Both the position numbers and the translations under genes were made by a program. Positions 1,841 through 38,201 of a DNA stretch of 64,000 bases are shown piece by piece. The DNA is taken from NCBI GenBank assembly GCA_964396685.1, contig CAYNFS010000001.1, positions 16,638 to 80,637 of the forward strand, in the 5' to 3' direction. Below the pieces are notes generated by a model. The model worked only from the letters and a program-made list of their open reading frames with translations, made no database searches and was not told the origin of the DNA. Each line of letters starts with the position of its first letter. Positions within the stretch are counted from its first letter, which is position 1. This DNA comes from an uncultured Candidatus Saccharibacteria bacterium (GTDB lineage Bacteria; Patescibacteriota; Doudnabacteria; UBA920; 2-01-FULL-46-14).

Positions 1841-1920
1841 TCTGCTTCGCGTTTCTTCAGACCATTCATCCACGGGTTTACACTCGTTATATTCTGGTGA
1901 CGGGGTAAACCCCAAAAGAA

Positions 1921-1948: not shown

Positions 1949-1956
1949 TATTTTTA

Positions 1957-3171: not shown

Positions 3172-3172
3172 T

Positions 3173-8479: not shown

Positions 8480-8566
8480 ATCTTGATGTTATCATATGCA
8501 AAGCTTTCTCTCCAAACCTGCGAACCTTTGTCCATCGCCTTGATTTTTGCTATACTGACCGCCAGC

Positions 8567-15034: not shown

Positions 15035-15793
15035 TTATTCGTGCATTAACAACTTAATTCTGCGAAAACGATAAGCGAAAAAATTTCTCACAGTTTGCCA
15101 TTCAACTACTTCCCAGAACAAATAATTCAGCAATCTTAATAGACGGGAAGCACTCGGATGACATTGTATCAAAACTCCCCCGTTTAAAACCTCCCCTTGA
15201 TACTGCGTATCGGCATGGCGCTCAAGTGAATAGCCGTACTTTCCGGCCAGGGCCTTGCGAGCCCAATTTCGCTGGATGTGCCGGTGTCCTTCGATATAAA
15301 CAAACCTGACGCTTTTTAAATAACAAAGGTAATGCCAAACGGCATCATTGAACCCGTGACTTGGATCGTCCTCTCCCTTTCTGGCTTGTCCGCCGTCGAC
15401 TACCACCAAATCATACTCTCGCAACGGGGGAAGCATTCGGTAATCTTTGAGAATTTGAAACCGGCCACTAAACTCTTTGAGGTTTTCCGCGAGCTTTTCC
15501 GCAAAATACTGGTCATGCTCATATACGTCCAGTTTGGCTTGCGAATGTTTGAGCACCAAGTAGCTGATGGTCCCCAAACCTCCGCCGAGTTCCAAGACAC
15601 GCTCTGGGTGCTGCTTGCGGCAAAGCTCTAATAAAACGTGCAAAGTTGCGGGTTTGGCGATATGTTCGGAACGCGGAAACTGTCTAAACCGCTCGTATAC
15701 CGCGATGGCTTCTGGGTCAAAGTCAATCAACTTAATTTTTCGAATTGGCATGGGCAAACTCCCTAATGGTATTGATAATTTCCGCCTCCGCAC
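15035..15793 (-). CDS. class I SAM-dependent methyltransferase
   Basis: Motif I VLELGGGLGTISY. Start probably at an internal Met. Confidence 0.55.
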   Translation of the reverse strand: MRRRKLSIPLGSLPMPIRKIKLIDFDPEAIAVYERFRQFPRSEHIAKPATLHVLLELCRKQHPERVLELGGGLGTISYLVLKHSQAKLDVYEHDQYFAEKLAENLKEFSGRFQILKDYRMLPPLREYDLVVVDGGQARKGEDDPSHGFNDAVWHYLCYLKSVRFVYIEGHRHIQRNWARKALAGKYGYSLERHADTQYQGEVLNGGVLIQCHPSASRLLRLLNYLFWEVVEWQTVRNFFAYRFRRIKLLMHE

Positions 15794-17096
15794 GAATACT
15801 GGCTTGACCGTCAGGCGTATGAATCAAATATGTCAGAAACTCATCGCGGCGTTGTTTATCAGTTTGAATAAAATGCCGCTCTGGATTATCCAAAAGTTTT
15901 TCCAGCTCCCGTTCGGTCTTGGCATAAGAAACCAGCTCTGGATAGTGGGTAAAATAATCCCAAGGTTTTGCCGGAATCAAATCGCCGAAATAAGGAGAAA
16001 TTACCAATCGATTGGCCAGGAGTCCTTCGATTAAAGTTGTGGAAAGGTAACCCAAAACCGCAAAAGACGATTCAATGCACTCCCGAGGACTCGGGGCGCT
16101 GGTGATGGTGAGGTTTGGGATCGAGCGGCTAAAATTTTCGCGCTTAATCTTCTGAACATAGTCGAGATAAAAGCCTGCGGCTTTGGTTTTTATCACCACG
16201 CTGATCTCGGGATGTTTGAGGGCATAGTTCATTACCCAGAGATGGAAGTCTTCCGCTCGTCTCTCCCCCAGCTTAATCGTTTCCGGATCGGAAACAAAAC
16301 GCGGCAGACGATGCTTGACATAAAAAGAGAAAAGCACAATTTGCTTCGTTGGAGTCGACCCGCGGGTCTGAAAATAATAATCCAACCGCGGCACGCCGAC
16401 TATTTTTATCTGCTCTTTTGCCAAACCTTTGACTTTGCCGAGCAACGCTCCCAGAATCTTTTCGTTATAGGCCAAAAATTTGTGGCCGACGAACCGCCGA
16501 TTGACATACATGTCCTCCGCCCCTTCAAAAATACCCGCCGACAAGCCTTCTTTATGCAAAACCAGAAAAGGAATATTATCCTCCACACAAACTTTGGCCA
16601 GCTCCTGCTGAACAAGATAACCAAAATTTCCGGAAATGACTGCGTCGATTTTTAAATATCTGCGCAGATACGGAAACATCTTTTTAAGATACAGATAATA
16701 ACGCCGTTTCCCCTCTCGGCCGTGATCGGTGATATGGTAATTTGCTTCGGTCCATCCGGCTCTTTCATCATGATGCGTAAAGTGTTTATAAATAATCGCC
16801 CAGTAACTTTTGTGAACAGAAACATAATTAAGCTTGCCGCTAAACTCGGCCATGGCGCTGATGTCATCGTAAAAAATGCTTCGTCCTAAAACCAAAGCCG
16901 TGTAGTGACTGCCCCGGTCGATTTTTCCGGAAATCAAAGCCAGTACGGCAGCGGTCAGGCGGGGACTGTGAACATAAACACTGCCCTTGATCAGCAGCGG
17001 AAAAAACACCGCTCTCAATTTTACGATAATTTTTCTGCCAAGATCATTTGTCATATTCGATTCCAAAATCGGGCAATCCGAAACAGCGCTGCCCAA
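15732..17096 (-). CDS. large GT-B-like hypothetical protein, paralog 1 (possibly Capsule_synth/KpsS-KpsC-like or TagF-like transferase)
   Basis: Shares architecture and length (about 450-500 aa) with ORFs 25487..26998 and 36774..38201. No classical GT2/GT4 motifs. Confidence 0.4.
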   Translation of the reverse strand: MGSAVSDCPILESNMTNDLGRKIIVKLRAVFFPLLIKGSVYVHSPRLTAAVLALISGKIDRGSHYTALVLGRSIFYDDISAMAEFSGKLNYVSVHKSYWAIIYKHFTHHDERAGWTEANYHITDHGREGKRRYYLYLKKMFPYLRRYLKIDAVISGNFGYLVQQELAKVCVEDNIPFLVLHKEGLSAGIFEGAEDMYVNRRFVGHKFLAYNEKILGALLGKVKGLAKEQIKIVGVPRLDYYFQTRGSTPTKQIVLFSFYVKHRLPRFVSDPETIKLGERRAEDFHLWVMNYALKHPEISVVIKTKAAGFYLDYVQKIKRENFSRSIPNLTITSAPSPRECIESSFAVLGYLSTTLIEGLLANRLVISPYFGDLIPAKPWDYFTHYPELVSYAKTERELEKLLDNPERHFIQTDKQRRDEFLTYLIHTPDGQASIRAEAEIINTIREFAHANSKN

Positions 17097-17857
17097 TAAT
17101 ATCTCGAAAGTCTTTGAAAACGGTTGCCGGCCTCAAGGCTGTATTTCGCGATTTTCCACCGGTTGAAAAAATACTGTTCATGGTTCATTAAGAAACGGTA
17201 CTTGTGGGTAAACTGAAAGACTCCTTCCGCCAATGTCGCTTGATTGGTCAGCCTTTTGCCTTCCTGCGTCCCGTCAATTACCATATTGGCGGGAAGGACC
17301 GCGACTTCCTTCCCGAGGCGCAAAACCTCCAACACCAAGGCTTTATCCTCGGACGGCGGCAGTTTGGGATCATAACCTCGAACATGAAAGAATAGATCTT
17401 TGGAAATAACGATATTCGGTCCGCCGGCTCCTGGATTTGACACCAAAAGCACCTCCATCTTCACCCGACCCGTTGGGATTTTCCAAGGCAAAAGTTTGCC
17501 GTCTTTTTCTATATACACTCCGCTTAAAACGCATTCGGCGCCCTTCTCCAATTCTCTTGAAACATTTTCGAGATATTTCTCATTCCACTGGTTGTCATCG
17601 TCCAAAAAGGCGAGGTACTCACCCTTCGCTACGTATGCTCCGAAATTCCTCGCTTGCGCCGCACCGGCATAAGGCATGATCTCAAGAACCTTAACCCTAC
17701 TGCCAATCTCTTCCAAAAGCTCAACTTTGCCCCGGCCGTTGTTAACCACAATAATTTCGTGCGGCTGATATGTTTGCTTTAAGACAGTGCTAATAGCTCT
17801 CAAAAGCAACTCAGGCCGGTCGCAGGTTGGAATAATACAGCTGATCATTAGATTCAT
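17051..17857 (-). CDS. glycosyltransferase family 2
   Basis: N-terminal GT-A motif (CIIPTCDRPELLLRAISTVLKQTY...) and DxD-type acidic residues. Confidence 0.8.
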   Translation of the reverse strand: MNLMISCIIPTCDRPELLLRAISTVLKQTYQPHEIIVVNNGRGKVELLEEIGSRVKVLEIMPYAGAAQARNFGAYVAKGEYLAFLDDDNQWNEKYLENVSRELEKGAECVLSGVYIEKDGKLLPWKIPTGRVKMEVLLVSNPGAGGPNIVISKDLFFHVRGYDPKLPPSEDKALVLEVLRLGKEVAVLPANMVIDGTQEGKRLTNQATLAEGVFQFTHKYRFLMNHEQYFFNRWKIAKYSLEAGNRFQRLSRYYWAALFRIARFWNRI

Positions 17858-17885
17858 ACCTACCCCATTGCTGTCCAGTTGGACT

Positions 17886-18695: not shown

Positions 18696-18724
18696 CTATA
18701 TCTTCTCCTTAATTAAGTTTAGAA

Positions 18725-20482
18725 TCATTTACGGTGTTTGTTTATCAAATAGCGGCCAATGGCCAGTGCATCCAAACCCGTTGCCCAAAAAGTGCGCAGT
18801 GCATCCTGGATGGAACAGACAATCGGCTCGCCTTTCACATTAAAGGAAGTATTAAGTAGCACAGGAACTCCGGTTTTGCTCTCAAACGTTTTCAGCAGCC
18901 TATGATACAGCGGATTTACGTCCTCTCTTACGGTCTGAACGCGCGCGGTCCCGTCTATGTGCACGATCCCTGGCGCCTCTTTTTTCAATCGGTCATTGGC
19001 GAGAAACGCGAGATTCATAAACGGCGCCTCACAGAATTTATCAAAATAGCGATCCATAGCTTCCAACGGTAGAGACGGACAAAACGGCCGCCAATATTCG
19101 CGGAATTTCACCACGGCATTGACTTTGTCGCGATTTTTCACGTCCCTTGGGTCAGCCAAAATACTTCTCTGCCCAAGCGCCCTGGGTCCCGCTTCCATGC
19201 GGCCCTGAAACCAGGCGACCATACGGCCCGCTGCAAGAGCGCTGGCAACCGGCTTGCAAATGTCATCAAATTTTTCGTACGGAACATGCGTCATTTTCAG
19301 AACCTCCTCTATTTCCTCATCAGAAAATTCCGGCCCCAGGGCCAAGCTTTCCAATTTTTCCGGCCTGGCCCCAGTTTCCTGAAAAGAAGCCGCCAGAGCG
19401 ACGCCAGCCGCTGTGCCCGCATCATTGCATAAAGGATGAGCAAAGATCCGCCCCACTTCCGGCAGTAGAAAAATCGCACTATTCATTTTGATGTTGTGAG
19501 CAATTCCGCCCCCGACGCAGACATTCTGAATTCCCGTTTCCGAAATTGCCCAAAGCGCCAGACGGTTTACCGCTTCCTCTAATTTTTTTTGCACGGCAAA
19601 AGCGAGATTCTCGTGCCAAGCGGTAATCCCCTCGTCAGGCAAACGGGGGTTTTTCCCAAGAAGAACTATCAATTCGTCAGTAAAACGGCCTGAAAAAGAA
19701 TGCTTGCCGTAATGAATGTAGCGCGGATCAAGGCGGTATTCGATTCCATCTTCAGCCTGGCGAATCACCTGGTTAAGCTTGGACGTGAAATCCTCGTCTA
19801 AGCCGCCGTACGCCGACAATCCCATAACTTTGTATTCTCCGTCTTTGGAGCGAAATCCTAAAAATTCCGTAATAGCCGAATACAGCCAACCTAGGGAATG
19901 AGGCATGAGAATTTCCCGCATCGGCTTGATTTCATCTCCCTCGCAGCGCCACACCACGGCGCAGTGCTTGTCACCGGAACCATCTATAGTAAGACAAACA
20001 GCTTCATTAAAACCGGATTGCATGTAGGAATGAAAGGCGTGAGTATAATGATGCGGCATGTGAATGATTGGCGGCATTTTGATGTCGCCAAAAACCTTAC
20101 GCCAGTTCTTGTAATGGATATTTTCCATGCCTTCAAAGTTATGTCCGGAAATCATATAATTCTGCCAAGCTTTGGTTTGATTGTCCACCGGCCATGTTTT
20201 GGCCATCTCATCAAAAAATTTTCTCATAGTCCCGTCAGAATAGGCTTTGACGTTCCATGCTACTCCCACCCCGGCTATATCTTGCATTGATATACCTGCA
20301 CGTTTGAGGCAATATTTCAAAGCTCTGATCGGGTATATCCCGACCCCGTGCTTGTGGCGAATAAAGCGTTCTTCTTCGGCCAGGCCCAAGACTTTTCCAT
20401 CCCTGACTACGGCCACCGACGGATCCACCGGCTCAGCATTTATGCCAAGATAAATTTGTGACTTTTTTTCCATGTTCATCAA
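18725..20482 (-). CDS. carbamoyltransferase (NodU/CmcH/NovN family), full length
   Basis: Carbam_trans_N (ASKHA/Kae1-like) and C-terminal carbamoyl-phosphate-binding domain. Length 585 aa. Confidence 0.85.
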   Translation of the reverse strand: MMNMEKKSQIYLGINAEPVDPSVAVVRDGKVLGLAEEERFIRHKHGVGIYPIRALKYCLKRAGISMQDIAGVGVAWNVKAYSDGTMRKFFDEMAKTWPVDNQTKAWQNYMISGHNFEGMENIHYKNWRKVFGDIKMPPIIHMPHHYTHAFHSYMQSGFNEAVCLTIDGSGDKHCAVVWRCEGDEIKPMREILMPHSLGWLYSAITEFLGFRSKDGEYKVMGLSAYGGLDEDFTSKLNQVIRQAEDGIEYRLDPRYIHYGKHSFSGRFTDELIVLLGKNPRLPDEGITAWHENLAFAVQKKLEEAVNRLALWAISETGIQNVCVGGGIAHNIKMNSAIFLLPEVGRIFAHPLCNDAGTAAGVALAASFQETGARPEKLESLALGPEFSDEEIEEVLKMTHVPYEKFDDICKPVASALAAGRMVAWFQGRMEAGPRALGQRSILADPRDVKNRDKVNAVVKFREYWRPFCPSLPLEAMDRYFDKFCEAPFMNLAFLANDRLKKEAPGIVHIDGTARVQTVREDVNPLYHRLLKTFESKTGVPVLLNTSFNVKGEPIVCSIQDALRTFWATGLDALAIGRYLINKHRK

Positions 20483-21282
20483 TGCAAGCTTTTATAAATT
20501 TTTAGCACCTCGTCATGGATCTTGCTGTTACTCATCAAAACTCCATCCCGATGATAAAGATCCTCTGTGTTATAGACAAACTCCCGTCCCCAAAGATCAG
20601 TAATCCTGCCACCCGCCTCGGAAATCAAGCAATGAGCCGCGGCCGTATCCCACTGTTTCATCTTGTCTGTGGTCGCCAAATACAATTCTACTGTTCCAGC
20701 CGCCACCAACCCAGCCTTTAGTCCGGCGCTGCCCTGCGAAACGTATTCCCGAACGTTCAATTCGCGGGCCAGGCGCTTGTCTAATTCGGACAAATGATGC
20801 CGGCTCACAACTGCCTTTGCCTGCGAAAGCTGATCCACCAAGCTTACCCAAAGTTTTTGCCATTCACCGTTCTGGTTAAGATAAGCTCCCTCCCCTTTTT
20901 GTGCCGCATAATATCGGCCCGTGGCTGGCTGATATATGACCCCCAAAACCGGAGTACCTGCCTCAACCAAGGCGATCATCACACTAAACTCGCCGGTTTT
21001 GCCTATGAAATCCATGGTGCCGTCCAAAGGATCAACAATCCAAATCCGCTGTGCTTGCACTCTCGCGAGATCATCTTCCTGTTCCTCGGAAAGGATTGGT
21101 AGACCGGAGGAACGCAAAAATTTACTTATCGTATCCTGACTAGCACGGTCAGCAACAGTAACCTCCTCGCGATCCTGTTTGAATTCGGTCTCGAATTCAT
21201 AATGGTAAATGGCCATGATCTTGCTCCCGGCCGCTCTGGCGGCATCAATCGCCAACTTGGTTTCGTTCCAAAAATTCATCAT
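20479..21282 (-). CDS. inositol monophosphatase family protein, CysQ-like 3'(2'),5'-bisphosphate nucleotidase
   Basis: IMPase signature WIVDPLDGT and second metal-binding motif. Immediately downstream of the PAPS-synthase fusion. Confidence 0.75.
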   Translation of the reverse strand: MMNFWNETKLAIDAARAAGSKIMAIYHYEFETEFKQDREEVTVADRASQDTISKFLRSSGLPILSEEQEDDLARVQAQRIWIVDPLDGTMDFIGKTGEFSVMIALVEAGTPVLGVIYQPATGRYYAAQKGEGAYLNQNGEWQKLWVSLVDQLSQAKAVVSRHHLSELDKRLARELNVREYVSQGSAGLKAGLVAAGTVELYLATTDKMKQWDTAAAHCLISEAGGRITDLWGREFVYNTEDLYHRDGVLMSNSKIHDEVLKIYKSLH

Positions 21283-24035
21283 ATCAGCCCCTCGCTTTTA
21301 AGAAATTCCCAAACCTTCTGAACGCTTTGCTCAATGCTTTCACGGTTCGTGCTGATTGTGACATCCGGGTTTTGCGGGATCTCATAAGGATTTGATTCTG
21401 AAAAGCCGATAAGGTTTTTGAGTTGGCCGGCTTTTGCCTGCTGGTACAAACCCTTAGTATCGCGCTTCATGCATTCCTCCAAGGGGCAGTCGGCATACAC
21501 CAGAAAAAAGCTGCCCCCTACTATTTCGCGAACCATCTGCCGATCCGCCTCATATGGCGAAATAACCGGCACGAGCACAAAATCATGCTTTTCTCTTTCC
21601 TCCCGGGCCAGCCGGGCAATCAACTCGTTGTTTTTACGGATGTCCTCGCGGGAAAAACCCAAATTTTTGTGCAAAATCGCCCTGATTTCATCGCCATCCA
21701 GCATTTTCACTTGGTGCCCGAAACGCGAAAGTTCTTGTTTTAATCCTTCAGCCACAGCGGTTTTACCCGAACCGGAAAGTCCCGTAAACCAAAGCACGTG
21801 CCCGGCCGGGGCGGCGCTTGGATGTTTGACAAAAACTTCTTCGCCCCGTTTGATCGCTTCAACTATCATTTGGGAAATTTCCGGGCGCATAAACCATTCG
21901 GGTGGGGCCTCCCCCTTTTCAAACGTTTTTCTGGCTTCGGTGCCGCTGATATGAAGCTTGTCCTCTTCTGAATGCTCGATGCTGTCCATCTCATGGACAT
22001 GGGACTGCATTTTTTTGGAATAAAAAACCTGGTCAAACCGAATGGGAACAATGCCCAAATCAGGAAACTTGTCAAAAATCTCGTGGCTGGCCTTGGGGTG
22101 ATAAAAATCACCGACTCCGGTATGGTCGCGCCCCACGACGAAATGGCTGCAGCCGAAATTTTGCCGGCAAATGGCAGTAAACAGCGCCTCGCGCGGCCCA
22201 GCGTATCGAGAATAAGTAGCAAAAGTTCCCAGCACCACGCTGTCTTTGGGATAAAATTTTTGCATCATCATTTCATAAGCGCCGATGATGTATTTGGCGT
22301 GAAAATCCCCGGCCTTTTTCTTGCCGACGACCGGATGCACAAAAAGTCCGTCAGCGGAAGCTTGATCCATCGCCGCGAGCTGAATAAATTCGTGGGAGCG
22401 ATGAATGACGTTTCGGGTATGAAATCCAACGACCCTCTGCCAGCCGCGCTCGGAAAAAAGCCGTCTTGCTTGCCGCGGCGTCAACTCATACTCCTTGGCT
22501 TCGGAAGGCCGGCGGCGGATGAGATCAATTTTTCCGCCTAGAAACCAAGGCTCAAGCTGTTTGACATGCCGAACTCCCGGATGCTCCTCGTTTTGCGTGC
22601 CATACAGCTTTTGCGCCATTTCGTCCAAATCAAAGCGATACTTATCCTCGACATGTAAAAGAGCCGCCGGCTGATCCGACTCGTCAACGAGAACCACCAC
22701 ATCGCCGACATTAAGGGTGTTGGATTTTTCCTCGGAAACATTCAAAGTGATCGGCAGAGGCCAGATGACGCCGTTTGGCAGACGCATGGAATCCAAAACA
22801 CTGGCCAGTTCCTGGCGGCTCATAAATCCTTCTAAGGGACTGAAAGTGCCAATGGCAATTTGCTCCAAATCCATGTGAATTTCCTGGGATATGGAAATGC
22901 TCGCAAGTTTTCTAAAATCAATGCTCGGCATTTCCACTAATACGCGGTTGACCAATTTTCCTCCGTGGGGCGGCACCAATCCGCTGCTTCGATGCTGGAG
23001 CATAGAAGACGCTTTGGGAAAAGTGCCGGGATTGAGCATGGCTTCGGCCTCGGAAATGAGTTTTAGCATCATGTTCACGCTTTTGATCGGATATTTTCCG
23101 ATCGCGGTTTCCGCGGACAGCACTACGCCATAGGCTCCATCCAAAATAGTGCTCACCACATCATTGGCCTCGGCTCTCGTGGGACGCTTATTTTTTACCA
23201 TCGATTCCAAAAAGTTAGTGGCCACAAAAACCCCTTTGCCGAATTTCTTGGCCTGCCCTATGACGTGCTTTTGCAAAAAGGGAAGCTTTTCAATTGGCGC
23301 CTCTTTGCTCAAATCGCCCCGGTCCAAAAGCAGATAATCAGACGCTTTTATGATCCCCTCAAGGTTGTTCAGGGCGTCCGCGCATTCGATCTTGGAAATT
23401 ATTTTCATTTTCCCCATGCATGCCCTTCGTACTTCTTCCACAAAAGAAGCGGAACGCATGAAAGAAGCGGCAATCATATCTATTCCCTGGCTTAAACCGA
23501 GCTTGATGGATTCATAATCTTTGGATGTGAGAGCGGGCAAATCAAACTTCTTGGGAAATCCGGGATCCACAACAACGGCTTTGTTGCGGCCAACAATCCC
23601 GGCGCTTATCGCACGCGCTCTAATAAATCCTTGGGGCACAGTGGAAATATCAGTAACTCGCAAAATGGCCGTGTCAAAATCCACGTGCAACAGATCCCCT
23701 TTCAGGAGCTGGGAGAGAATGTAAGCGGGTTTCAAGGCGATTGTTCCGGGCCCGCCGATTTTGGGATAAGCACAAATTTTTACTTCTTCGTTTTCATCAA
23801 GATAAATCTGCTCATCAGAAAGTTCTCCGGTTCTGATTTGCGATCCCTCGGTGTCAAGAATAAACGGGATGCCGACTTTTTTTGCAAGGGCGATGAAATA
23901 TTCCAAATCGGCAATCGTGGAGTGGGACATGTTGATCCGCACGAAATCAACCCCGCGCGTTTTAATCATGCGCAAATCGGCTTCGCTTCTAGTCGCGGGT
24001 CCTAGAGTGACTATTAATTTTACTTGTTTATCCAT
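21279..24035 (-). CDS. tri-domain fusion: pyruvate-kinase-like barrel (N) + sulfate adenylyltransferase/ATP sulfurylase (middle) + adenylylsulfate (APS) kinase (C), i.e. a PAPS synthase with an N-terminal PK-like domain
   Basis: PK core motifs (LDTEGSQIRTG, DRGDLSKE, TNFLESM, PTRAEANDV, VLSAETA). Sat motifs (PPHGG, GFHTRNVIHRSHEFIQ, VHPVVGKKKAGD, GRDHTGVG). CysC P-loop WFTGLSGSGKTAVA. A single 918-aa ORF with no internal stop. Confidence 0.85.
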   Translation of the reverse strand: MDKQVKLIVTLGPATRSEADLRMIKTRGVDFVRINMSHSTIADLEYFIALAKKVGIPFILDTEGSQIRTGELSDEQIYLDENEEVKICAYPKIGGPGTIALKPAYILSQLLKGDLLHVDFDTAILRVTDISTVPQGFIRARAISAGIVGRNKAVVVDPGFPKKFDLPALTSKDYESIKLGLSQGIDMIAASFMRSASFVEEVRRACMGKMKIISKIECADALNNLEGIIKASDYLLLDRGDLSKEAPIEKLPFLQKHVIGQAKKFGKGVFVATNFLESMVKNKRPTRAEANDVVSTILDGAYGVVLSAETAIGKYPIKSVNMMLKLISEAEAMLNPGTFPKASSMLQHRSSGLVPPHGGKLVNRVLVEMPSIDFRKLASISISQEIHMDLEQIAIGTFSPLEGFMSRQELASVLDSMRLPNGVIWPLPITLNVSEEKSNTLNVGDVVVLVDESDQPAALLHVEDKYRFDLDEMAQKLYGTQNEEHPGVRHVKQLEPWFLGGKIDLIRRRPSEAKEYELTPRQARRLFSERGWQRVVGFHTRNVIHRSHEFIQLAAMDQASADGLFVHPVVGKKKAGDFHAKYIIGAYEMMMQKFYPKDSVVLGTFATYSRYAGPREALFTAICRQNFGCSHFVVGRDHTGVGDFYHPKASHEIFDKFPDLGIVPIRFDQVFYSKKMQSHVHEMDSIEHSEEDKLHISGTEARKTFEKGEAPPEWFMRPEISQMIVEAIKRGEEVFVKHPSAAPAGHVLWFTGLSGSGKTAVAEGLKQELSRFGHQVKMLDGDEIRAILHKNLGFSREDIRKNNELIARLAREEREKHDFVLVPVISPYEADRQMVREIVGGSFFLVYADCPLEECMKRDTKGLYQQAKAGQLKNLIGFSESNPYEIPQNPDVTISTNRESIEQSVQKVWEFLKSEGLI

Positions 24036-24793: not shown

Positions 24794-24795
24794 AA

Positions 24796-25482: not shown

Positions 25483-25486
25483 ATTC

Positions 25487-30183: not shown

Positions 30184-30194
30184 ATTCGAATCTC

Positions 30195-31481: not shown

Positions 31482-31491
31482 GACTATATGA

Positions 31492-32274
31492 TTAGACCGA
31501 GGATTTAGTGATAAAGTCGTTAGCAAGCGATTTGAGGAGACCCTCATTCCTGGTAATACTCAAATTCTTAACCGCTACCTTCATATTTTTAGTCAAAAGC
31601 GAAATATGATGAAGGTAGCCATCGGTAATTCGACTGTTGGTAATTAAAAATTTTGCCACCTCGAAATCTTCCTTTTCATCCACCGTGAACCGAAAATGCC
31701 TAAAATCGGCAGGCGCTTTGAGGTTTCCTTTTTTGTACTTTTGGCGTTTGCGTATATACAAAGTTACGTGTTCGCGTTCCGAAAAAAGTTTGGCAAAACG
31801 GTCTGCCTCAAGCAAGGCTTTTCTCGTAAAAACCTCTACATCCAGACCGTCGGGGAAAGTTTCTTCGAGAATATTGGCCGCATAATCGTAACGTTTTAGG
31901 CGGTATAACTTAATCACTTCATAGATAACCTCTGGATCAATCAAAGGGCAATCGCCAGTGACTCGCACGATATTACGGTACTGAGAATATCGCCGGGCGC
32001 ACTCCGCATAACGGTTTAACACATCTTGTTCGGAACCTCGAAAGCACGCAACTCTTAACTTGTTACACAACCTGACTACTTTTATATCCTCTTTATTTGT
32101 TGTTGTTGCAACCACGATCTTGTCAATCCCGTCAGCCAGTTGCACCCTTCTAATCTCGTATGCAAGAAGTGGAATCCCTTTAACTTTAAGCAAAACTTTT
32201 CCGGGCAGCCGGGTTGATCCCAAACGAGCTTGGATGATGCACAGGGTTTTCCCTCTCATTTTCGTTGCACGCAA
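31492..32274 (-). CDS. CMP-sugar cytidylyltransferase (acylneuraminate cytidylyltransferase / SpsF-PseF-like)
   Basis: LCIIQARLGSTRLPGKVL motif. Confidence 0.8.
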   Translation of the reverse strand: MRATKMRGKTLCIIQARLGSTRLPGKVLLKVKGIPLLAYEIRRVQLADGIDKIVVATTTNKEDIKVVRLCNKLRVACFRGSEQDVLNRYAECARRYSQYRNIVRVTGDCPLIDPEVIYEVIKLYRLKRYDYAANILEETFPDGLDVEVFTRKALLEADRFAKLFSEREHVTLYIRKRQKYKKGNLKAPADFRHFRFTVDEKEDFEVAKFLITNSRITDGYLHHISLLTKNMKVAVKNLSITRNEGLLKSLANDFITKSSV

Positions 32275-33215
32275 TATTTTAAGACTTGACTGGCAATCGA
32301 CAGATTGTTGAACGTCTGCTCTCGTCGGCTAACACACTGAAAAAAATATTTTATCTCATCAATGTAAGTCTGGTTAAATACAAAGCCTTTCGGATGCAGC
32401 AGCTTTTTTGTCCGGTTTTTTGACTTAAGCCAGACGACATTTTCGTGAAAATCCCACTCTAAATTCCCCTTTTCCCCCACAACCTTACAGTTTCTGGAGT
32501 AATGCTGCTGCAGATAGTCAGAATGAATGGAAGCAAAAATATCATTTTGAAATCGAAAAATAGCCAGGCTTAAATCCTCAGTTTCAATTTCTAAGTTGCT
32601 GACCCGCTCATAGAAAAATTTAGACTGGCGTACGGGACTGAAATTGTTTAACCAAAAAGCTAAATCAAATTCGTGGATATCGTCCAAAATAATTCCGCCA
32701 CCGGTGTCCCGTCGGGCCGCGAAATTTTTCCTATAATCAGTTTCCGGCCGCCAAAAAGGCAGATAATAACCGAATTCCAAATAAATGCTGTATATTTTAC
32801 CCAACTCCTTATTCGCCAGATAGTTTTTGATGAACCGCAGACAAGGATGAAAACGTAGGTTACATCCGACCATGGTGATTAATTTTTTCCTCTGGCAAAT
32901 CTTGTTTAACATCGCCACTCCAAGCAAATTGTGGGAGAGTGGCTTTTCAATAAAAAGGTGACAACCGGCCTTTGCCGCAAGCATCGCCTGCTTAATATGC
33001 AGATGGTTCGGCGAACAAATGAATGCGACATCAAATTTTTCTAAAGTTCCCATTCCTAAATTTTGAATTTTGAATTTTGAATTTTGAATTTTGCGCGAGT
33101 TAGAATCATAAACATAAACCTGTTCGTAACCCAAGGCGAGCAAGTTCTTATAGTGCCTCTTCCCAATTGACCCAACCCCAATTATTAAAATTTTAGGATT
33201 GAATTGTTTCGGCAT
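32256..33215 (-). CDS. Gfo/Idh/MocA family oxidoreductase carrying an in-frame heptanucleotide repeat
   Basis: Rossmann motif ILIIGVGSIGKRHYKNL. ORF track start 33401 is unlikely (it overlaps the upstream stop); Met at 33215 is used. Confidence 0.75.
   Translation of the reverse strand: MPKQFNPKILIIGVGSIGKRHYKNLLALGYEQVYVYDSNSRKIQNSKFKIQNLGMGTLEKFDVAFICSPNHLHIKQAMLAAKAGCHLFIEKPLSHNLLGVAMLNKICQRKKLITMVGCNLRFHPCLRFIKNYLANKELGKIYSIYLEFGYYLPFWRPETDYRKNFAARRDTGGGIILDDIHEFDLAFWLNNFSPVRQSKFFYERVSNLEIETEDLSLAIFRFQNDIFASIHSDYLQQHYSRNCKVVGEKGNLEWDFHENVVWLKSKNRTKKLLHPKGFVFNQTYIDEIKYFFQCVSRREQTFNNLSIASQVLKYCVQRK
33059..33093. repeat. heptanucleotide tandem repeat (aattttg)x5 inside the oxidoreductase CDS (encodes KIQNSKFKIQN)
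   Basis: Five perfect 7-mer units read directly from the sequence. Confidence 0.9.
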
Positions 33216-34305
33216 ATTGCCTGGTCCGAGCTTCGTATTCCTTAAGAAAATATCTTTTATCATAATATTTTTCGCCCATAAAAAGCGGAATCGTAAACCC
33301 CCCAAAACCGCGCTTAAATTTGGAAATATTGATCTGCTTTGGGGAGAAATAAGGGGTAAGATCGGGTGCAAAATATTGCCATCCCAGCTCGTAAAACTCA
33401 ATCTTACTTTTATGCATCCACTCGATCGCTGCCCACTGAATAAAATGAGACACTGGAATATCTTTTGCTTGCTCCGAAATACCTACGGAACCGTAATAAG
33501 CGTTATTTTTATAAACAAAGAAATAAATGAAACCTAGATAAGCGGCCCCCAGTTTGGCACCAGCCAAAAAAGCCTCACCGCGTTTTGCTGTCTCGTACAT
33601 ACTTTCGTAAGTTTTTGGCGAACGGATAATTCTTTTTGCTTCTTGTTGATGTAACTGAACATAGTTTTCAAAAATCTTGAGAGTAAGCTTATTTTGGTCA
33701 AAAAACTCCGCCTCCAAGGTCTTAGCTCCTTGAGCAATTGCCGCATCGTGGCCATGGCGCAAATCACGACGAAGGACCGACAACGGCTGTTTGAGATCAA
33801 TCACCTGCGTACTGATCGAACAATCCAAGTATCCGAACTTGTGAAGAAAATTAGATCTTCGTCTTAAGGTTTCCTGCAAATAAGATTTGTTCAGGGTGAC
33901 AAACCGAAAACTGGCTCTACTGACACGATGCTTTCGCGCCAACCGGTCAACTTCTTCAAAAATAAACTTCAAGACTTTCTCTCTGATCTTCGGAGATAAA
34001 TCATTCGCCAAAGCCGGAACGGGAAGGGGAATATCACCCATGGTAAACTCGCGGCCAGTAGCCTTGGTCTCAAGAAATAAAGGACAAATCGCCAAAATTT
34101 TGCCGTTGTCTTCCACAATAAAAGATAAGGATAGGGGGTAAAAATCGGTGCGATAATCCAAGTTATACCGAAGCCAAGAAGTAGTATGCCAAAACCAAGC
34201 ATCATCGCTTTTTAGACAAAATTCGTCCCAGAGGAGATAATTTTTTGCAGTCAATTCTTTAATCTCCATTTGAAACTTGGAAAAAGGTTTTAATGACTTT
34301 AGCAA
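33193..34305 (-). CDS. FemAB/BioF2-like GNAT-fold acyltransferase (putative sugar aminoacyl/acyl transferase)
   Basis: Length, charge pattern and C-terminal GNAT-like region resemble Acetyltransf_6/FemAB. Weak. Confidence 0.4.
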   Translation of the reverse strand: MLKSLKPFSKFQMEIKELTAKNYLLWDEFCLKSDDAWFWHTTSWLRYNLDYRTDFYPLSLSFIVEDNGKILAICPLFLETKATGREFTMGDIPLPVPALANDLSPKIREKVLKFIFEEVDRLARKHRVSRASFRFVTLNKSYLQETLRRRSNFLHKFGYLDCSISTQVIDLKQPLSVLRRDLRHGHDAAIAQGAKTLEAEFFDQNKLTLKIFENYVQLHQQEAKRIIRSPKTYESMYETAKRGEAFLAGAKLGAAYLGFIYFFVYKNNAYYGSVGISEQAKDIPVSHFIQWAAIEWMHKSKIEFYELGWQYFAPDLTPYFSPKQINISKFKRGFGGFTIPLFMGEKYYDKRYFLKEYEARTRQYAETIQS

Positions 34306-35380
34306 TAGATTTCACCTCGCCTCGGGAAAGTCTAGGGAAACAGGGTAAAGTCAGGCAAGAACGGTGATAAACTTCGGCGTTGGGAAGTTGTAAATTTTTG
34401 TACCCAATTTTCTGATAATATGGGTGGGAATAAACTGCCGGATAATGAAAATTTACTCCAATTCCCCGCTCTTTCAAAAAACTCATCAAGGGGTCCCGCA
34501 ATTCAGGGTTTGTGACCAGAACCACATAAAGGTGCCAGCCGGAATAATTTCTCGGAAGTTGTTTGGGTAAGACGATCTCTTTGACTTGGTTTAATTCTTG
34601 ATAATACCATTCCGCCACCTTGTGCCTTTTGTGAAGAAAACTATCCAGTCGTTTCAGTTGCGAGAGGCCCAGCGCCGCTTGCAAGTCTGTTGTCCGGTAA
34701 TTATAGCCCAGGTCAATCATGACATTTTTGCCAGCTTGGTCTTTGTAAATCCCGTGATTCCTGAGCGAAACTAATCTCCGATAATATTTTTCGTTATCAG
34801 TCAAAATCGCTCCTCCCTCCGCCGTGGTAATAGCTTTTACTGGGTGAAAACTAAAAACCGCCATGTCACTTTTTAGCGAACCAATTTTTTTATTCCGGTA
34901 TCTGGCCCCCAACGCATGACAAGCATCCTCAATCACAATCAGCCGATATTTTTTTGCCAGCTTTAAAACTTTCTCCATTTCGACCGGCTGGCCGGCAAAG
35001 TGAACAGGGATAATTGCTTTCGTTTTTTTAGTCAGGAGTTTCTCAATTTTCGCTTCATCCAAATTGTAAGTATCAAGGCGGATGTCGGTGAAAACTGGCT
35101 TTGCCCCAACGGCCAAAAGCATATTTGCGGTGGCAGCAAAAGTGTTTGGTGTAGTAATCACCTCATCGCCTTTTTTCAATCCTGCCGCAAGGTACGCCAA
35201 GTGCAAAGCGTCCGTCCCGTGACTCGTGGCCACGGCGTATTTCGCGCCACAGTAACGGGCCAATGCCTCCTCAAAAGCCGAAATGTTTGGTCCTTGGGTT
35301 AACCAATCTGAGCGCAAAACCTTGATGACCGCAGCAATATCCTCGGCACTAATAGTTTGTCGTCCATAAGGGATCGCCAT
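34259..35380 (-). CDS. DegT/DnrJ/EryC1/StrS family PLP-dependent sugar aminotransferase
   Basis: Characteristic N-terminus (IPYGRQTISAEDIAAV...WLTQGP) and PLP-Lys region (FSFHPVKAIT). Confidence 0.9.
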   Translation of the reverse strand: MAIPYGRQTISAEDIAAVIKVLRSDWLTQGPNISAFEEALARYCGAKYAVATSHGTDALHLAYLAAGLKKGDEVITTPNTFAATANMLLAVGAKPVFTDIRLDTYNLDEAKIEKLLTKKTKAIIPVHFAGQPVEMEKVLKLAKKYRLIVIEDACHALGARYRNKKIGSLKSDMAVFSFHPVKAITTAEGGAILTDNEKYYRRLVSLRNHGIYKDQAGKNVMIDLGYNYRTTDLQAALGLSQLKRLDSFLHKRHKVAEWYYQELNQVKEIVLPKQLPRNYSGWHLYVVLVTNPELRDPLMSFLKERGIGVNFHYPAVYSHPYYQKIGYKNLQLPNAEVYHRSCLTLPCFPRLSRGEVKSIAKVIKTFFQVSNGD

Positions 35381-35396
35381 AATAATTTTTCTTTAA

Positions 35397-35810
35397 TTAC
35401 TTATACTCGATATCCCAAATATTCCATTTATCATAGGGAAAACGAATGTCGTCCTTTTCACTTTCTTCTAAGCTTAGGGAAGAAAAGAAAATTACAATTG
35501 TGTCTTCCTCTAAAGTCATAAAACCGTTGGCGTGATTCGGTGGAATCCACAAAATTCGCGGCTTTTCGGCTGCCAGCACGAATTTTTCAACTTCTTCAGT
35601 GTGCAAATTAACCACTCCAACAAATGCCGAACCACGCGCGACATAAACATATTTCTGCTCGGTCTTATGCCCGTGCCAACCACGGATAAAACCTCGTCGA
35701 TGGTTTTCGATCTGATAAAACCGCTTGACGTTTTTGAAATCAAAATCGTTGACGAACCGCACAACGCCGCGTTGATCAAAAACCAAATCACCAGATATTA
35801 AGTTAGCCAT
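35397..35810 (-). CDS. WxcM/FdtA-like cupin (sugar 3,4-ketoisomerase family)
   Basis: FYQIENHRRGFIRGWHGHK and downstream His residues. About 135 aa. Confidence 0.65.
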   Translation of the reverse strand: MANLISGDLVFDQRGVVRFVNDFDFKNVKRFYQIENHRRGFIRGWHGHKTEQKYVYVARGSAFVGVVNLHTEEVEKFVLAAEKPRILWIPPNHANGFMTLEEDTIVIFFSSLSLEESEKDDIRFPYDKWNIWDIEYK

Positions 35811-35833
35811 ATTCTTTCTTCTTAATGTTAATT

Positions 35834-36781
35834 TTAAATTATGCGACTTTTAATAAACTGGGCATTGGAATAGTTAATGTCATTCGGTTCTCGCATCCGG
35901 TGCTCCTCTAAAATCTGGGAAAATTCTTTGATACCGAAAGGTAAGTCATATTTCGGGCGCCAACCATAAGAACGTAGTTTCTCCGAGCTAACTTTATAAT
36001 TACGCAAATCTTCGAATCTGATGTTAGAATAACTAATCCGCGTGTGCGGGATAATTTTTTTCACCTCTTCTGCAATATCGCAAATTCTAAAATTTTTGTA
36101 ATTGATATTAAATATGCCTTGCAAGTTCTGCTCTATGCCGAATAAAACCGCTTCGGCCACATCTTTAACATGAAGTAACGGCCGCCATTGCCCTCCGCCA
36201 AACACGTTAAGATTTCCAAGCAGTATGGCTTGTTTGGTCAGCGCGTTGACTACCAAGTCCATGCGGGGACGCGAGTATCGATCGCCCAGTCCGAAAAGCG
36301 TTGCCAGCCGAAAAATCAGATAATCTTTACTGTGCGCCACGACGCCTTGCTCCGCCTTCAATTTGCTTTCGGCGTAGACAGAAATGGGATTAAGTTTGGC
36401 ATCTTCGTCGAGTAAATCATCATTAATTCCATAAACCGAAGCGGTAGACATAAAGATAATTTTGCCGTGGTAATTTTTTGCCAGCCACTCGACCGGCTTT
36501 GTATTAATCTCAAAAGTCAAGGTTGGATTTACGGCACAAGCCGCGTCCCCAACTAATGCCGCAAGCCAAATCACGATATCAAAATTATTAATAATACTTC
36601 CAAGTCTTTCGTGGTCTCTCACGTCGCCATAAATAAACGAAGCGTTCTTCAAATACCGGGATTCGTACACCAAATTATCGTAAATCGTCACCTCATAACC
36701 CTTTTCTCTCAACAAATCCGTCAAATATCCCCCCACATAGCCGGCGCCGCCGGTAATTAAAATAGTTTTATCTTCAGACAT
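35834..36781 (-). CDS. NAD-dependent epimerase/dehydratase (extended SDR; nucleotide-sugar 4,6-dehydratase/4-epimerase-like)
   Basis: ILITGGAGYVGGYL and YAESK. Confidence 0.85.
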   Translation of the reverse strand: MSEDKTILITGGAGYVGGYLTDLLREKGYEVTIYDNLVYESRYLKNASFIYGDVRDHERLGSIINNFDIVIWLAALVGDAACAVNPTLTFEINTKPVEWLAKNYHGKIIFMSTASVYGINDDLLDEDAKLNPISVYAESKLKAEQGVVAHSKDYLIFRLATLFGLGDRYSRPRMDLVVNALTKQAILLGNLNVFGGGQWRPLLHVKDVAEAVLFGIEQNLQGIFNINYKNFRICDIAEEVKKIIPHTRISYSNIRFEDLRNYKVSSEKLRSYGWRPKYDLPFGIKEFSQILEEHRMREPNDINYSNAQFIKSRII

Positions 36782-38201
36782 GTAATTCCGAAATTATGGC
36801 TTCGCTTAAATTACGAAGTCTCTGTCCAGTGGTCAATTGAGATATGTCGGTATTAAATGGATCGTCTACGGAGCAATGAATCGTTGCGTCATCAAAACTT
36901 TTAAGAAAATTGATGACTGCCTGTGCTTTGATCTTAAAACCATTTCTGATCTTTTCAAACGCCGCACGGCAAGTGGCTACGTCTTCAACTTTGAATACCA
37001 AGGGACAATCGCGATACCATGGATAGCCAAAAATCACGGCCGGCTTGCGCCGCAGAATCGCCTCCCAACCGGGTGTGCCGGTTACCGTTGCGACGGCCTG
37101 AGAGCGATCAATCAGTTCATAGTTGTCGGTTTCAATTGGCACCAAAAAAACTTTCGGGATCCGAGCAATTTTTTCATAATAACCACGATAACGAAAAGGC
37201 GAATATTTACGGCCTTGCCTCCACCATTGTACCGGATGTTCTTTGACATACACTATCCATTGTTCCGGCAGGGTGGCCGCCACGGTTTCGATCATAAAAA
37301 TCAAATCCGCAAAAATTTCTCCAAGCGGCACGGTAGTCCGCTCTGGCTGGTATTGCAAAGGAATGTACACGAATTTTCGCTGATAATCCGGTCTGACTTG
37401 ATACTCGCGATACTCCTTCCAAGCATTGGGACCCAGGCGACTTGCAAAAAAACGATAGGCTAAAACGAAAAGCCGCGGGCTTATCAAATTTTTCCCAAAG
37501 ATTTTCAATTTTCGTCGGAAGTTATTAAAACCCAAATATCGCCGCCTATCAAGTTTTAAATACCAAGGTTTGGCTTCTTCAGTGTCTTTTCCAGTCTGTT
37601 TCAAATAATACGTCTGCAAATCGGGACTCAATTCATTCAAAGAAAATTGCTTGCCTTGATTTTGTTGCAATATCTGCGAAAGTTTCGGGCTTGGTTCCCA
37701 GGGATCAAAGTGAACAAATGTCCTATCGGAAACCGGGGTATCGGAGAACATAATCGTTTTTATGCCACTAAGTTTAGCAAGGCTGTAAAGAAGGTAATTG
37801 TAGTTGTTTGCCGGGGATATTGGAAAAATTATTGCGTCCGGACGAAACTCCTCAAGCACTCCCTGCCAATAACGCAGCAAGTCATAATACAAATGTTTGT
37901 GCTCTTCGAAAGAGAGATAAGGAAATACCTTGTTCGTCATTGTCATAACAATTGACTCCACTCCATAAAGTCTGCGAACAAGATCGGCCGAGGGGGGCGG
38001 ATATTTCCAGACTTCAATACCGGGAGCCGGAATTCCTCGACGGGCATCTTTGTAATTGTGAAAAATAATTTCCGGAAAATTTTTGACCTCCCTATTAAAC
38101 GCCCCTACCCAATAAAGCACCTGATGAGAATGCTTCTGAAGTTCTGTGATCGTATTTGCCGTTTCCGCGCCATGGTTGGCGAAAATTAAAAAAAGACGCA
38201 T
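36774..38201 (-). CDS. large GT-B-like hypothetical protein, paralog 3 (putative KpsC/KpsS-like ulosonic-acid transferase)
   Basis: See paralog 2. Shared PLQ...Q and KEHP motifs. Confidence 0.45.
   Translation of the reverse strand: MRLFLIFANHGAETANTITELQKHSHQVLYWVGAFNREVKNFPEIIFHNYKDARRGIPAPGIEVWKYPPPSADLVRRLYGVESIVMTMTNKVFPYLSFEEHKHLYYDLLRYWQGVLEEFRPDAIIFPISPANNYNYLLYSLAKLSGIKTIMFSDTPVSDRTFVHFDPWEPSPKLSQILQQNQGKQFSLNELSPDLQTYYLKQTGKDTEEAKPWYLKLDRRRYLGFNNFRRKLKIFGKNLISPRLFVLAYRFFASRLGPNAWKEYREYQVRPDYQRKFVYIPLQYQPERTTVPLGEIFADLIFMIETVAATLPEQWIVYVKEHPVQWWRQGRKYSPFRYRGYYEKIARIPKVFLVPIETDNYELIDRSQAVATVTGTPGWEAILRRKPAVIFGYPWYRDCPLVFKVEDVATCRAAFEKIRNGFKIKAQAVINFLKSFDDATIHCSVDDPFNTDISQLTTGQRLRNLSEAIISELHV

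Follow-up and report, generated by a model that had tools for sequence, protein, structure and literature searches.

In the current study, sequence comparison places two of the three GT-B proteins encoded in the window (the whole stretch of 64,000 nucleotides that was analysed), ORF2 and ORF3, as true homologues or paralogues whose closest characterised relative is the Acinetobacter pseudaminic acid (Pse) transferase KpsS1 (GT118), and ORF1 as a third GT-B protein of another family. On balance, we favour the explanation that ORF2 and ORF3 are KpsS1-like nonulosonate transferases, that ORF1 is a nonulosonate transferase of the other family, and that an ABC exporter flips the product.

According to this explanation, the window would hold a large surface-glycan cluster encoding two CMP-ulosonic-acid pathways, and ORF2 and ORF3 would each work in the cytoplasm, transferring a CMP-activated nonulosonate to a lipid-linked glycan. 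The His of their K-E-H-P motif may act on the CMP phosphate, and the invariant Glu of Q-P-E would sit at the site of the nucleophilic Asp of retaining Kdo transferases. ORF1 would serve the second ulosonic acid, probably by a different mechanism, since in ORF1 the nucleophile position holds no conserved acidic residue and K289-T290-K291 stands where ORF2 and ORF3 have K-E-H. Flipping of the product would then fall to the adjacent MsbA/PglK-type exporter. The donor, acceptor and stereochemistry are those that we infer from the observed homology, motifs, fold and gene neighbourhood. As the candidates number three and the pathways two, they do not pair one-to-one, and related loci hold differing subsets of the three families; the sequence-only reading, which had matched three enzymes to the two pathways, gives no one-to-one match, and any pairing of enzyme with pathway would be provisional.

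Gene cluster and division of the three proteins into two families

The ORF check of the window confirmed that all three reading frames are real and lie on the minus strand (Table 1). ORF1 probably begins at 17054 and not at the listed TTG start further upstream, at 17096; the database protein P0241, also of 440 aa, begins at Met15, and with the start at 17054, ORF1 and the stop of the GT2 gene upstream share 4 nt.

Table 1. Features of the glycan cluster and its surroundings in the window.
Feature	Position	Strand	Assignment
Wzy_C + TPR protein	4916..7156	(-)	O-antigen-ligase-like; between type IV pilus genes and glycan cluster
Bac_transf	8390..9946	(+)	Initiating phosphoglycosyl transferase
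NeuB-Cupin_2 fusion	12657..14234	(-)	Divergent NeuB; pathway B synthase
Cytidylyltransferase B	14276..15025	(-)	CTP_transf_3; PseF-like, below cutoff
Methyltransferase-like gene	15035..15793	(-)	Downstream of ORF1; weak KsgA-like match
ORF1	15732..17054	(-)	440 aa from Met at 17054; separate GT-B family, distant BFO_1060/TIGR04396 kin; candidate transferase for second ulosonic acid
GT2 glycosyltransferase	17051..17857	(-)	Directly upstream of ORF1
ORF2	25487..26998	(-)	503 aa; ORF3 paralogue from the same superfamily, very conserved
Methyltransferase + GNAT fusion	26995..28455	(-)	PseH-like GNAT; directly upstream of ORF2
PseI-type nonulosonate synthase	28452..29567	(-)	Pathway A; TIGR03586, 414 bits (cutoff 340)
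Cytidylyltransferase A	31492..32274	(-)	CTP_transf_3; profile match
PseC-type aminotransferase	34259..35380	(-)	Pathway A; TIGR03588, 458 bits (cutoff 423.5)
ORF3	36774..38201	(-)	475 aa; KpsS1-like Capsule_synth (PF05159) GT-B protein, candidate CMP-nonulosonate transferase
ABC exporter	38204..40009	(-)	Fused TMD-NBD, MsbA/PglK/HepA type (Pfam + NCBIfam); directly upstream of ORF3
Small ORF, ~80 aa	40003..40269	(-)	Upstream of ABC gene; HTH-like by sequence reading only

Pathway A is represented by PseC and PseI equivalogs, and pathway B by the NeuB-cupin fusion, a HAD phosphatase and the PseF-like cytidylyltransferase. Both NeuB synthases and both cytidylyltransferases that had been proposed for the cluster were located by profile matches. 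No PseG or NeuC homologue was found within the window by sequence and small-profile searches, and no Kdo synthesis genes were identified there. An HTH_17 gene occupies the position of the small ORF, upstream of the ABC gene, in L002, L122 and L123. The nearest relatives of the cluster are almost all Patescibacteria (candidate phyla radiation).

The three proteins had been read as paralogues, the first more divergent, that share collinear motifs and resemble the Capsule_synth family, and this holds for ORF2 and ORF3 only. Their BLASTP alignment (26% identity over 356 aa, E 8e-17) and the hhalign comparison of their family profiles (probability 99.7%, E 2.3e-25, 388 columns) demonstrated homology, the motifs were found in ORF2 (FPLQVQPEES, VVKEHP and SYLEKIARTPNVKLV) and in ORF3 (IPLQYQPERT, YVKEHP and GYYEKIARIPKVFLV), and both proteins exceed the Pfam PF05159 gathering score (22.4 bits for ORF2 against a cutoff of 20). 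ORF1 showed no significant pairwise similarity to either protein in BLASTP (E about 1 to 4), lacks the shared motifs, including HP, and had no Capsule_synth match, which rules it out as a paralogue of the other two. Profile–profile comparison of ORF1 with ORF2 and ORF3 gave 66–70% probability over ~100 columns, restricted to the C-terminal Rossmann domain.

ORF1 and the adjacent nonulosonate synthases

In the ORF1 family, 28 of 29 members match NF046086 (best E 3e-25) and TIGR04396. ORF1 itself scores far under the curated cutoffs (44.8 versus 200 bits for NF046086, with the match limited to the C-terminal half, and 19 versus 125 bits for TIGR04396), which counts against the assignment. NF046086 is named for a Tannerella protein whose deletion leaves CMP-Pse in place but strips Pse or Leg from the O-glycan (PMC5420450).

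NeuB and a cytidylyltransferase accompany the ORF1 homologue in each of the 14 metagenomic loci that reach 10 kb or more, and in about a dozen loci NeuB starts 0–80 nt downstream of the homologue, even at 22–27% identity. The NeuB partners are of three types, namely long forms of 736–756 aa, which resemble the NeuB + Epimerase_2 (NeuC-like) fusion annotated in L004, NeuB-cupin fusions (as in L087, L101 and L114), and short NeuB whose operon also encodes a HAD phosphatase. The occurrence of one family beside such varied upstream chemistry favours a role downstream of CMP activation. ORF1 also adjoins a GT2 gene, and a block of ORF2 homologue, GT2 and ORF1 homologue recurs in L095, L098 and L099; in P0270, the counterpart of the downstream methyltransferase-like gene is fused to an ORF1-like protein.

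The tight adjacency to NeuB would also suit a hydrolysing 2-epimerase like NeuC or a phosphotransferase like TagF/TarL, but in L004, and probably also in L085 and L086 (NeuB of 736–756 aa), the neighbouring NeuB already includes a genuine NeuC domain by fusion, and L105-type loci, with short NeuB and a same-operon HAD phosphatase, should need no NDP-sugar hydrolase. The missing HP motif also speaks for such an enzyme, as do the invariant GxPRxD and (H)KEG of the family, which may resemble TagF-like and 2-epimerase motifs; however, Pfam gave no Epimerase_2 or Glyphos_transf match at E up to 10, none of the 29 family members matched NeuC or WecB in NCBIfam, and the relatives that do score form the Tannerella transferase family. 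Based on this evidence, we regard it as unlikely that ORF1 is an epimerase or phosphotransferase rather than a nonulosonate transferase.

ORF2 and ORF3 as KpsS1-like proteins

Structure prediction of ORF3 (pLDDT 91) gave KpsC, WbbB and KrkA, all ulosonic-acid transferases, as the nearest structures. The invariant residues are Q285-P286-E287 and K320-E321-H322(-P323) in the ORF3 family, and Q314-x-Q316-P317-E318 and H353-P354 in the ORF2 family. The KpsS1-type reference was a 480-aa ORF of A. baumannii that carries the Y131-E132 described for KpsS1 (PMC12887879) and adjoins a complete PseB/C/F/G/H/I set in which every member exceeds its NCBIfam cutoff. It was matched by the ORF3 family with probability 99.1% (E 4.5e-19) and by the ORF2 family with 97.6% (E 3.9e-12, hhalign).

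The sequence-only reading held that, if it was right, such a family would be unusual for the transfer of nonulosonates, which does not stand. KpsS-like nonulosonate transferases were already proposed in 2014–15, the PF05159 proteins KpsS1, KpsS2 and Gtr59 were assigned to Pse, Aci and 8eLeg transfer in 2015 (PMC4487303), and KpsS1 is a retaining Pse5Ac7Ac transferase and the founder of GT118 (Walklett 2024, as cited in PMC12887879). The enzyme type of ORF2 and ORF3 is, as judged by homology, already known. The less explored aspect is the setting, as all three families are abundant in Patescibacteria and the host, likely from the candidate phyla, is unstudied. The further proposal that all three proteins transfer CMP-nonulosonates is plausible from KpsS1-type homology and gene neighbourhood.

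Among the 37 loci of the ORF3 family that were flanked by at least 9 kb on each side, NeuB was present in 24, NeuB or a cytidylyltransferase in 31, and the ABC exporter in 34; both NeuB and a cytidylyltransferase were missing within 10 kb in 6 of the 37, which counts against the favoured explanation. The ORF3 homologue lies directly downstream of the exporter gene (ABC homologue at most 300 nt upstream) in 49 of 68 loci. This arrangement, and the ABC-transporter-dependent pathways of the closest structures, KpsC and WbbB (PMC10148158, PMC12887879), would fit a KpsS/WbbB-like function in which ORF3, and possibly ORF2, adds an ulosonic-acid primer on lipid or a chain-terminating export cap instead of a repeat-unit residue. 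We consider this very unlikely, since the exporter is a fused MsbA/PglK-type half-transporter in which no carbohydrate-binding module could be recognised, the window encodes a Bac_transf initiating enzyme, and in L124 the ABC gene is followed directly by a PseB-like gene without an ORF3 homologue.

As the PseC and PseI equivalogs of the window come without any PseG or NeuC homologue, a hydrolase role is conceivable for one of the GT-B proteins. The likeliest candidate would be ORF2, which, in a pseudaminic-type pathway without PseG, would supply the absent nucleotide-sugar hydrolase, free a 2,4-diamino-trideoxyhexose for the PseI-type synthase and leave two transferases for two pathways. PseI-like and ORF2-type genes occur without PseG in L003, L018, L057, L091, L095, L097 and the window, and loci with clear PseG (L110, L112, L113, L119 and, more weakly, L048) have no ORF2-type gene, although this complementary distribution comes from few loci, ±10 kb, and a PseG search by single sequence or small profile. 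Conservation in the ORF2 family is unusually high (58–83% identity among the matches listed). The fusion protein P0195 joins a PseH-like GNAT to an ORF2-like part, much as L110 and L119 apparently pair PseG with GNAT, and this counts against the transferase reading. However, ORF2 has the signature of KpsS1, a characterised transferase whose organism also owns PseG, and retains the invariant Q314, the ulosonate-carboxylate-binding Gln in Kdo transferases (PMC12887879). ORF2 homologues end the NulO module in L003 and L124, and those of L122 and L123 head operons of glycosyltransferase and modification genes (GT4, pyruvyl-transferase, methyltransferase) divergent from the biosynthetic operon. A hydrolase role of ORF2 is, in our estimation, quite unlikely.

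Two further observations were made in these loci. In L019, where PseG is clear, a second gene of the Capsule_synth type matches ORF2 at a borderline level (E 1.2e-30), and the layout of P0195 resembles the long PseG-like ORFs of L110 and L119, which appear to bear GNAT, judging from the GNAT matches of the profile.

Comparison with known systems

The nucleotide-sugar hydrolases PseG and NeuC share the GT-B fold, and their function, missing from the window, would fit the gene positions; they have no sequence match to the window proteins, and in their catalytic signature ORF2 and ORF3 belong with the KpsS/KpsC clade. The beta-Kdo transferases KpsC/KpsS (GT107) and WbbB (GT99) differ in their invariant QXXXD Asp nucleophile, which is Glu in the ORF2 and ORF3 families and counts against the transferase reading; additionally, the first Gln is variable in the ORF3 family (Q/H/N/G/S), and the window synthases are NeuB-type.

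Concerning ORF1, the Tannerella forsythia enzymes Tanf_01245/TFUB4_00887 (BFO_1060 family), transferases of Pse/Leg derivatives, represent the NF046086 model that its family matches. They are similar in size, about 440 aa, and in strain UB4 they likewise lie beside the CMP-nonulosonate module, with a methyltransferase in between (PMC5420450). Apart from the low, C-terminal score of ORF1, the difference is K-T-K against the reported HP motif of Tannerella, the position being set via the ORF1–ORF2 alignment and not the Tannerella sequence.

Compared with KpsS1, the window proteins have about 25% identity over the aligned part only, HP replaces HK, and the YE motif with the proposed general base Glu132 is F-P in ORF3 and T-P in ORF2, which counts against the transferase reading; the window cluster has an ABC exporter, not Wzx/Wzy, and no PseG. 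On the other hand, ORF2 and ORF3 are homologous to the KpsS1-type protein across both domains (about 260–306 columns), similar in length (475–503 versus 480 aa) and likewise adjoined by a Pse-type gene module, and both families share with it the N-domain His, P-x-x-x-[Q/H]-P-E with Glu replacing the Asp of Kdo transferases, K-x-H, E-A, K-P and G.

ORF2 and ORF3 among the KpsS-like proteins

Translation bore out the three reading frames that the sequence-only reading had described as paralogues of one family, with the start of ORF1 likely at Met15 instead. The single family held for two of them: ORF2 and ORF3 aligned at 26% identity over 356 aa (BLASTP, E 8e-17) and their family profiles at a probability of 99.7% (hhalign, E 2.3e-25, 388 columns), but pairwise BLASTP of ORF1 against either gave nothing significant. 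The resemblance to Capsule_synth (PF05159), proposed for all three, was likewise found for ORF3 (33.5 bits) and ORF2 (22.4 bits), membership being defined as a whole-protein score of at least the gathering score of 20 bits, but not for ORF1, which had no Pfam match at all and was unmatched by Capsule_synth even at E up to 10. The family profiles matched KpsC structures (ORF3 family, E 1e-7; ORF2 family, E 4e-3), and the predicted fold of ORF3 was closest to KpsC and WbbB. ORF2 scored 25.9 bits against NF046086, whose curated cutoff is 200. The TagF-like identity named earlier as an alternative was rejected for ORF2 and ORF3 by the lack of any match to PF04464 (Glyphos_transf).

A tblastn search of the plasmid collection incidentally matched chromosome-sized Acinetobacter baumannii records, in which PseB, PseC, PseF, PseG, PseH and PseI, each above its NCBIfam cutoff, are followed by a 410-aa and a 480-aa ORF. 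KpsS-type transferases have been described beside the psa module (PMC4487303, PMC9676051), and a YE motif, with Glu132 as the proposed general base, has been described for KpsS1 (PMC12887879). Since the 480-aa ORF carries Y131-E132 and lies beside the psa module, we treated it as KpsS1-type. Both the ORF3 family (hhalign probability 99.1%, E 4.5e-19, 306 columns) and the ORF2 family (97.6%, E 3.9e-12, 262 columns) aligned with it, values that denote similarity and not placement in CAZy GT118, and phmmer gave 2e-11 and 2e-13. The ORF1 family aligned with it over 42 columns only.

The most economical reading is that ORF2 and ORF3 are KpsS1-like CMP-nonulosonate transferases, for which we infer donors, acceptors and stereochemistry. 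The function suggested by the sequence-only reading is thereby plausible, but its one-family wording fails, ORF1 probably representing a second kind. Its further suggestion, that this would be an unusual enzyme family for nonulosonate transfer, was overtaken by the literature: PF05159 proteins were assigned as Acinetobacter nonulosonate transferases in 2015 (PMC4487303), and KpsS1 is described as the characterised founding member of GT118 (Walklett 2024, as cited in PMC12887879), the family of pseudaminyltransferases whose mark is transfer of Pse from CMP-Pse with retention. As KpsS-like proteins are already accepted nonulosonate transferases, no new enzyme class is added.

The main caveat lies in the missing PseG/NeuC function. 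Equivalogs of PseC and PseI were present in the region of the first nonulosonate pathway (26998..36800), and none of PseB, PseG (TIGR03590), PseF or NeuC was found in the window; A. baumannii PseG and candidate-phyla-radiation NeuC queries matched no window ORF by phmmer or hmmsearch. One KpsS-like protein, most likely ORF2, might then be a hydrolase rather than a transferase, ORF2 being very conserved and, in one database protein (P0195), fused to a PseH-like GNAT domain. Epimerase_2 (PF02350) reached ORF2 only below threshold (E 0.051, 12.9 bits against a cutoff of 30.6) and gave no match to ORF1 or ORF3 at E up to 10; mutual exclusion of PseG and ORF2 homologues, viewed in a few loci of plus or minus 10 kb, is at most a tentative pattern. 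We consider the hydrolase improbable. In place of the missing equivalogs, separate SDR and cupin, FemAB-like, GFO oxidoreductase, class-III aminotransferase and DUF218 genes recur in the related Patescibacteria loci L002 and L124, and the pathway looks like a non-canonical route.

ORF1 and its separate family

With Met15 most likely as its true start, ORF1 matches the database protein P0241 and overlaps, by 4 nt, the stop of the GT2 gene preceding it. Its predicted model was confident (pLDDT 90). [quoted passage not shown] Neither ORF1 nor its family profile matched PDB sequences beyond chance (TFIID, NF-Y), and tblastn with ORF1 found nothing in the plasmid collection. The family is sizeable (in a full-library profile search, 665 cluster representatives passed E <= 1e-30 and 1471 passed E <= 1e-10), and its invariants include GxPRxD, (H)KEG and GNFGY..QQE.

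The sole sequence families touched by ORF1 were NF046086 (BFO_1060) and TIGR04396 (surface carbohydrate biosynthesis protein), which 28 of 29 family members matched, always far below the cutoffs (best E 3e-25 and 5e-17, respectively). ORF1 itself scored 44.8 bits against NF046086 (cutoff 200; profile positions 196-364 of 365) and 19 bits against TIGR04396 (cutoff 125). Judged by sequence, ORF1 is a distant relative of NF046086 and not a member. BFO_1060 is the FDC 92A2 homologue of Tanf_01245, the two being named together in PMC5420450; when Tanf_01245 is deleted, the Tannerella O-glycan loses Pse5Am7Gra, and CMP-Pse5Am7Gra stays in the nucleotide-sugar pool (PMC5420450). On the most economical reading, ORF1 would be a nonulosonate transferase of a second kind, akin to the Tannerella enzyme; its donor, acceptor and stereochemistry we infer.

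Gene content and neighbourhoods of the glycan cluster

The region is a single long run of minus-strand genes, called from Pfam and NCBIfam scans and listed in the table. The same scans of the cluster confirmed the two NeuB synthases and two cytidylyltransferases counted previously.

Features of the glycan cluster, in gene order, and of its surroundings
Position	Feature	Coordinates	Strand
1	HTH-like small ORF	40003..40269	-
2	MsbA/PglK-type ABC exporter		-
3	ORF3 (475 aa)	36774..38201	-
4	SDR dehydratase/epimerase		-
5	Cupin		-
6	PseC (458 bits, cutoff 423.5)		-
7	FemAB-like protein		-
8	GFO oxidoreductase		-
9	Cytidylyltransferase		-
10	Class-III aminotransferase		-
11	DUF218		-
12	PseI (414 bits, cutoff 340)		-
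13	Methyltransferase-GNAT fusion		-
14	ORF2 (503 aa)	25487..26998	-
15	Methyltransferase		-
16	APH-like kinase		-
17	918-aa fusion: pyruvate-kinase barrel, PUA_2, ATP-sulfurylase, APS kinase	21279..24035	-
18	CysQ-like phosphatase, adjoining the fusion	20479..21282	-
19	Carbamoyltransferase		-
20	Methyltransferase		-
21	GT2		-
22	ORF1 (440 aa)	15732..17054	-
23	Methyltransferase-like gene	15035..15793	-
24	PseF-like cytidylyltransferase		-
25	Divergent NeuB-type synthase with C-terminal Cupin_2	12657..14234	-
26	HAD phosphatase		-
27	GFO oxidoreductase		-
28	Sulfotransferase	10017..10949	-
Outside main run	Bac_transf initiating enzyme		
Outside main run	Wzy_C (O-antigen-ligase-like) and TPR protein	4916..7156	-
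Outside main run	Type IV pilus genes: PilB/PilC-like genes and pseudopilins	876..4915	
	Truncated UDP-glucose/GDP-mannose dehydrogenase-like ORF	57092..57883	-
	Truncated UDP-glucose/GDP-mannose dehydrogenase-like ORF	57873..58712	-
	1018-aa ORF	60818..63874	-

Metagenome-assembled genomes of Patescibacteria dominate all three families. The best species-representative genome matched ORF3 at only 64% identity, and it is on the homologues of these three genes that the window is putatively assigned to Patescibacteria. In the ORF3 family, 49 of 68 loci have the ABC exporter immediately upstream; of the 37 loci that extend 9 kb or more to both sides, 24 contained NeuB, 31 NeuB or a cytidylyltransferase, and 34 the ABC gene. 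In L002, L122 and L123, an HTH_17 gene stands where the window has the small ORF, directly upstream of the exporter, which suggests that a conserved regulator heads the operon.

In the ORF1 family, each of the 14 metagenomic loci that are 10 kb or longer contained NeuB together with a cytidylyltransferase, and NeuB often starts 0-80 nt past the ORF1 homologue, even with relatives at only 22-27% identity. These NeuB partners were of three kinds, namely long proteins of 736-756 aa resembling the NeuB and Epimerase_2 fusion annotated in L004, NeuB-cupin proteins, and short NeuB proteins whose operon also includes a HAD phosphatase. Owing to this variety, action of ORF1 after CMP activation fits better than a step of pathway-specific biosynthesis. 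The NeuB-Cupin_2 fusion, accompanied in the window by HAD phosphatase and GFO oxidoreductase genes, adjoins ORF1 homologues in L087, L101 and L114 (E <= 1e-160). Two database proteins carry ORF1-like fusions, one (P0270) with a homologue of the methyltransferase-like gene at position 23 and the other (P0297) with a radical-SAM domain having a CxxxCxxC motif.

ORF2 homologues stand at the end of a nonulosonic-acid module in L003 and L124, and in L122 and L123 they come first in an operon that encodes GT4, pyruvyl-transferase and methyltransferase proteins; a block of ORF2 homologue, GT2 and ORF1 homologue recurs across loci. L124 holds two nonulosonic-acid modules with ORF2 and ORF1 homologues and no ORF3 homologue, and such differing contents indicate that the three families are used in different combinations.

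Concerning sulfation, the 918-aa fusion, the CysQ-like phosphatase and, farther along the cluster, the sulfotransferase together imply that PAPS is made available to sulfate a glycan; a fusion of pyruvate kinase to ATP-sulfurylase/APS kinase may be unusual. Between the type IV pilus genes and the cluster, the Wzy_C-TPR protein could be a candidate O-oligosaccharyltransferase, in which case pilins could be glycosylated. Elsewhere in the window, the tandem dehydrogenase-like ORFs (263 and 279 aa), each comprising part of the N-terminal domain and the central domain, may represent either a duplication or two gene fragments, and the 1018-aa ORF matched nothing in Pfam or NCBIfam and has no exact counterpart in the protein collection.

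The three families are catalogued almost wholly as hypothetical proteins and are numerous in candidate-phyla-radiation genomes; the value of the analysis lies in annotation and ecology, since a reading of these families as probable nonulosonic-acid transferases is now possible. This reading predicts sialic-acid-like, possibly sulfated, surface sugars on ultrasmall episymbionts. In the full texts available for searching, no paper connected Patescibacteria with nonulosonic acids, and the setting is therefore an under-explored one. A broader reading, offered tentatively and as doubtful in its entirety, is that a surface glycan coupled to an ABC exporter is widespread in Patescibacteria, its two nonulosonic acids being installed by the three lineage-enriched families. 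The glycan of the window would in addition carry sulfate, carbamoyl and methyl groups, the ORF1 family (K-T-K for HP, about 665 clusters at E <= 1e-30) would form a new CAZy-level nonulosonate transferase family, and the adjacent Wzy_C-TPR ligase would attach the glycan to surface proteins, type IV pilins or others.

Catalytic motifs compared with beta-Kdo transferases and KpsS1

The motifs quoted in the sequence-only reading are present in ORF2 and ORF3, but ORF1 has K-T-K in place of K-E-H, I-K-T-K being invariant in its family where ORF2 has V-K-E-H. The first motif aligned as PLQYQPERTT in ORF3, PLQVQPEESI in ORF2, PIHFHPESST in the KpsS1-type protein, VDQTFNDMSV in KpsC-N and PGQVESDASI in KpsC-C, and the HP region as KEHP, KEHP, KDHK, KVHP and KPHP, respectively. 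Across 66 jointly aligned sequences, both window families and the KpsS1-type protein keep an N-domain His, P...[Q/H]-P-E, K-x-H, E-A, K-P and G.

The retaining beta-Kdo transferases (GT99, GT107 and GT140) have an invariant QXXXD with an Asp nucleophile (PMC10148158, PMC12887879), experimentally shown for KpsC and WbbB (PMC10148158). ORF2 and ORF3 resemble them in K-E-H-P, which is invariant or nearly so in both families, but differ in having an invariant Glu in place of this Asp (Q-Y-Q-P-E287 in ORF3, Q314-V-Q-P-E318 in ORF2), as the motif alignment puts the Glu of Q-P-E at the Asp position. The first Gln does not vary in the ORF2 family but does in the ORF3 family, and ORF1 had no QXXXD equivalent. 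The KpsS1-type protein also has the Q-P-E Glu, and this residue offers mutagenesis a specific handle on the GT118 mechanism; the YE Glu132 of KpsS1 is not kept, the aligned residues being F126-P127 in ORF3 and T148-P149 in ORF2.
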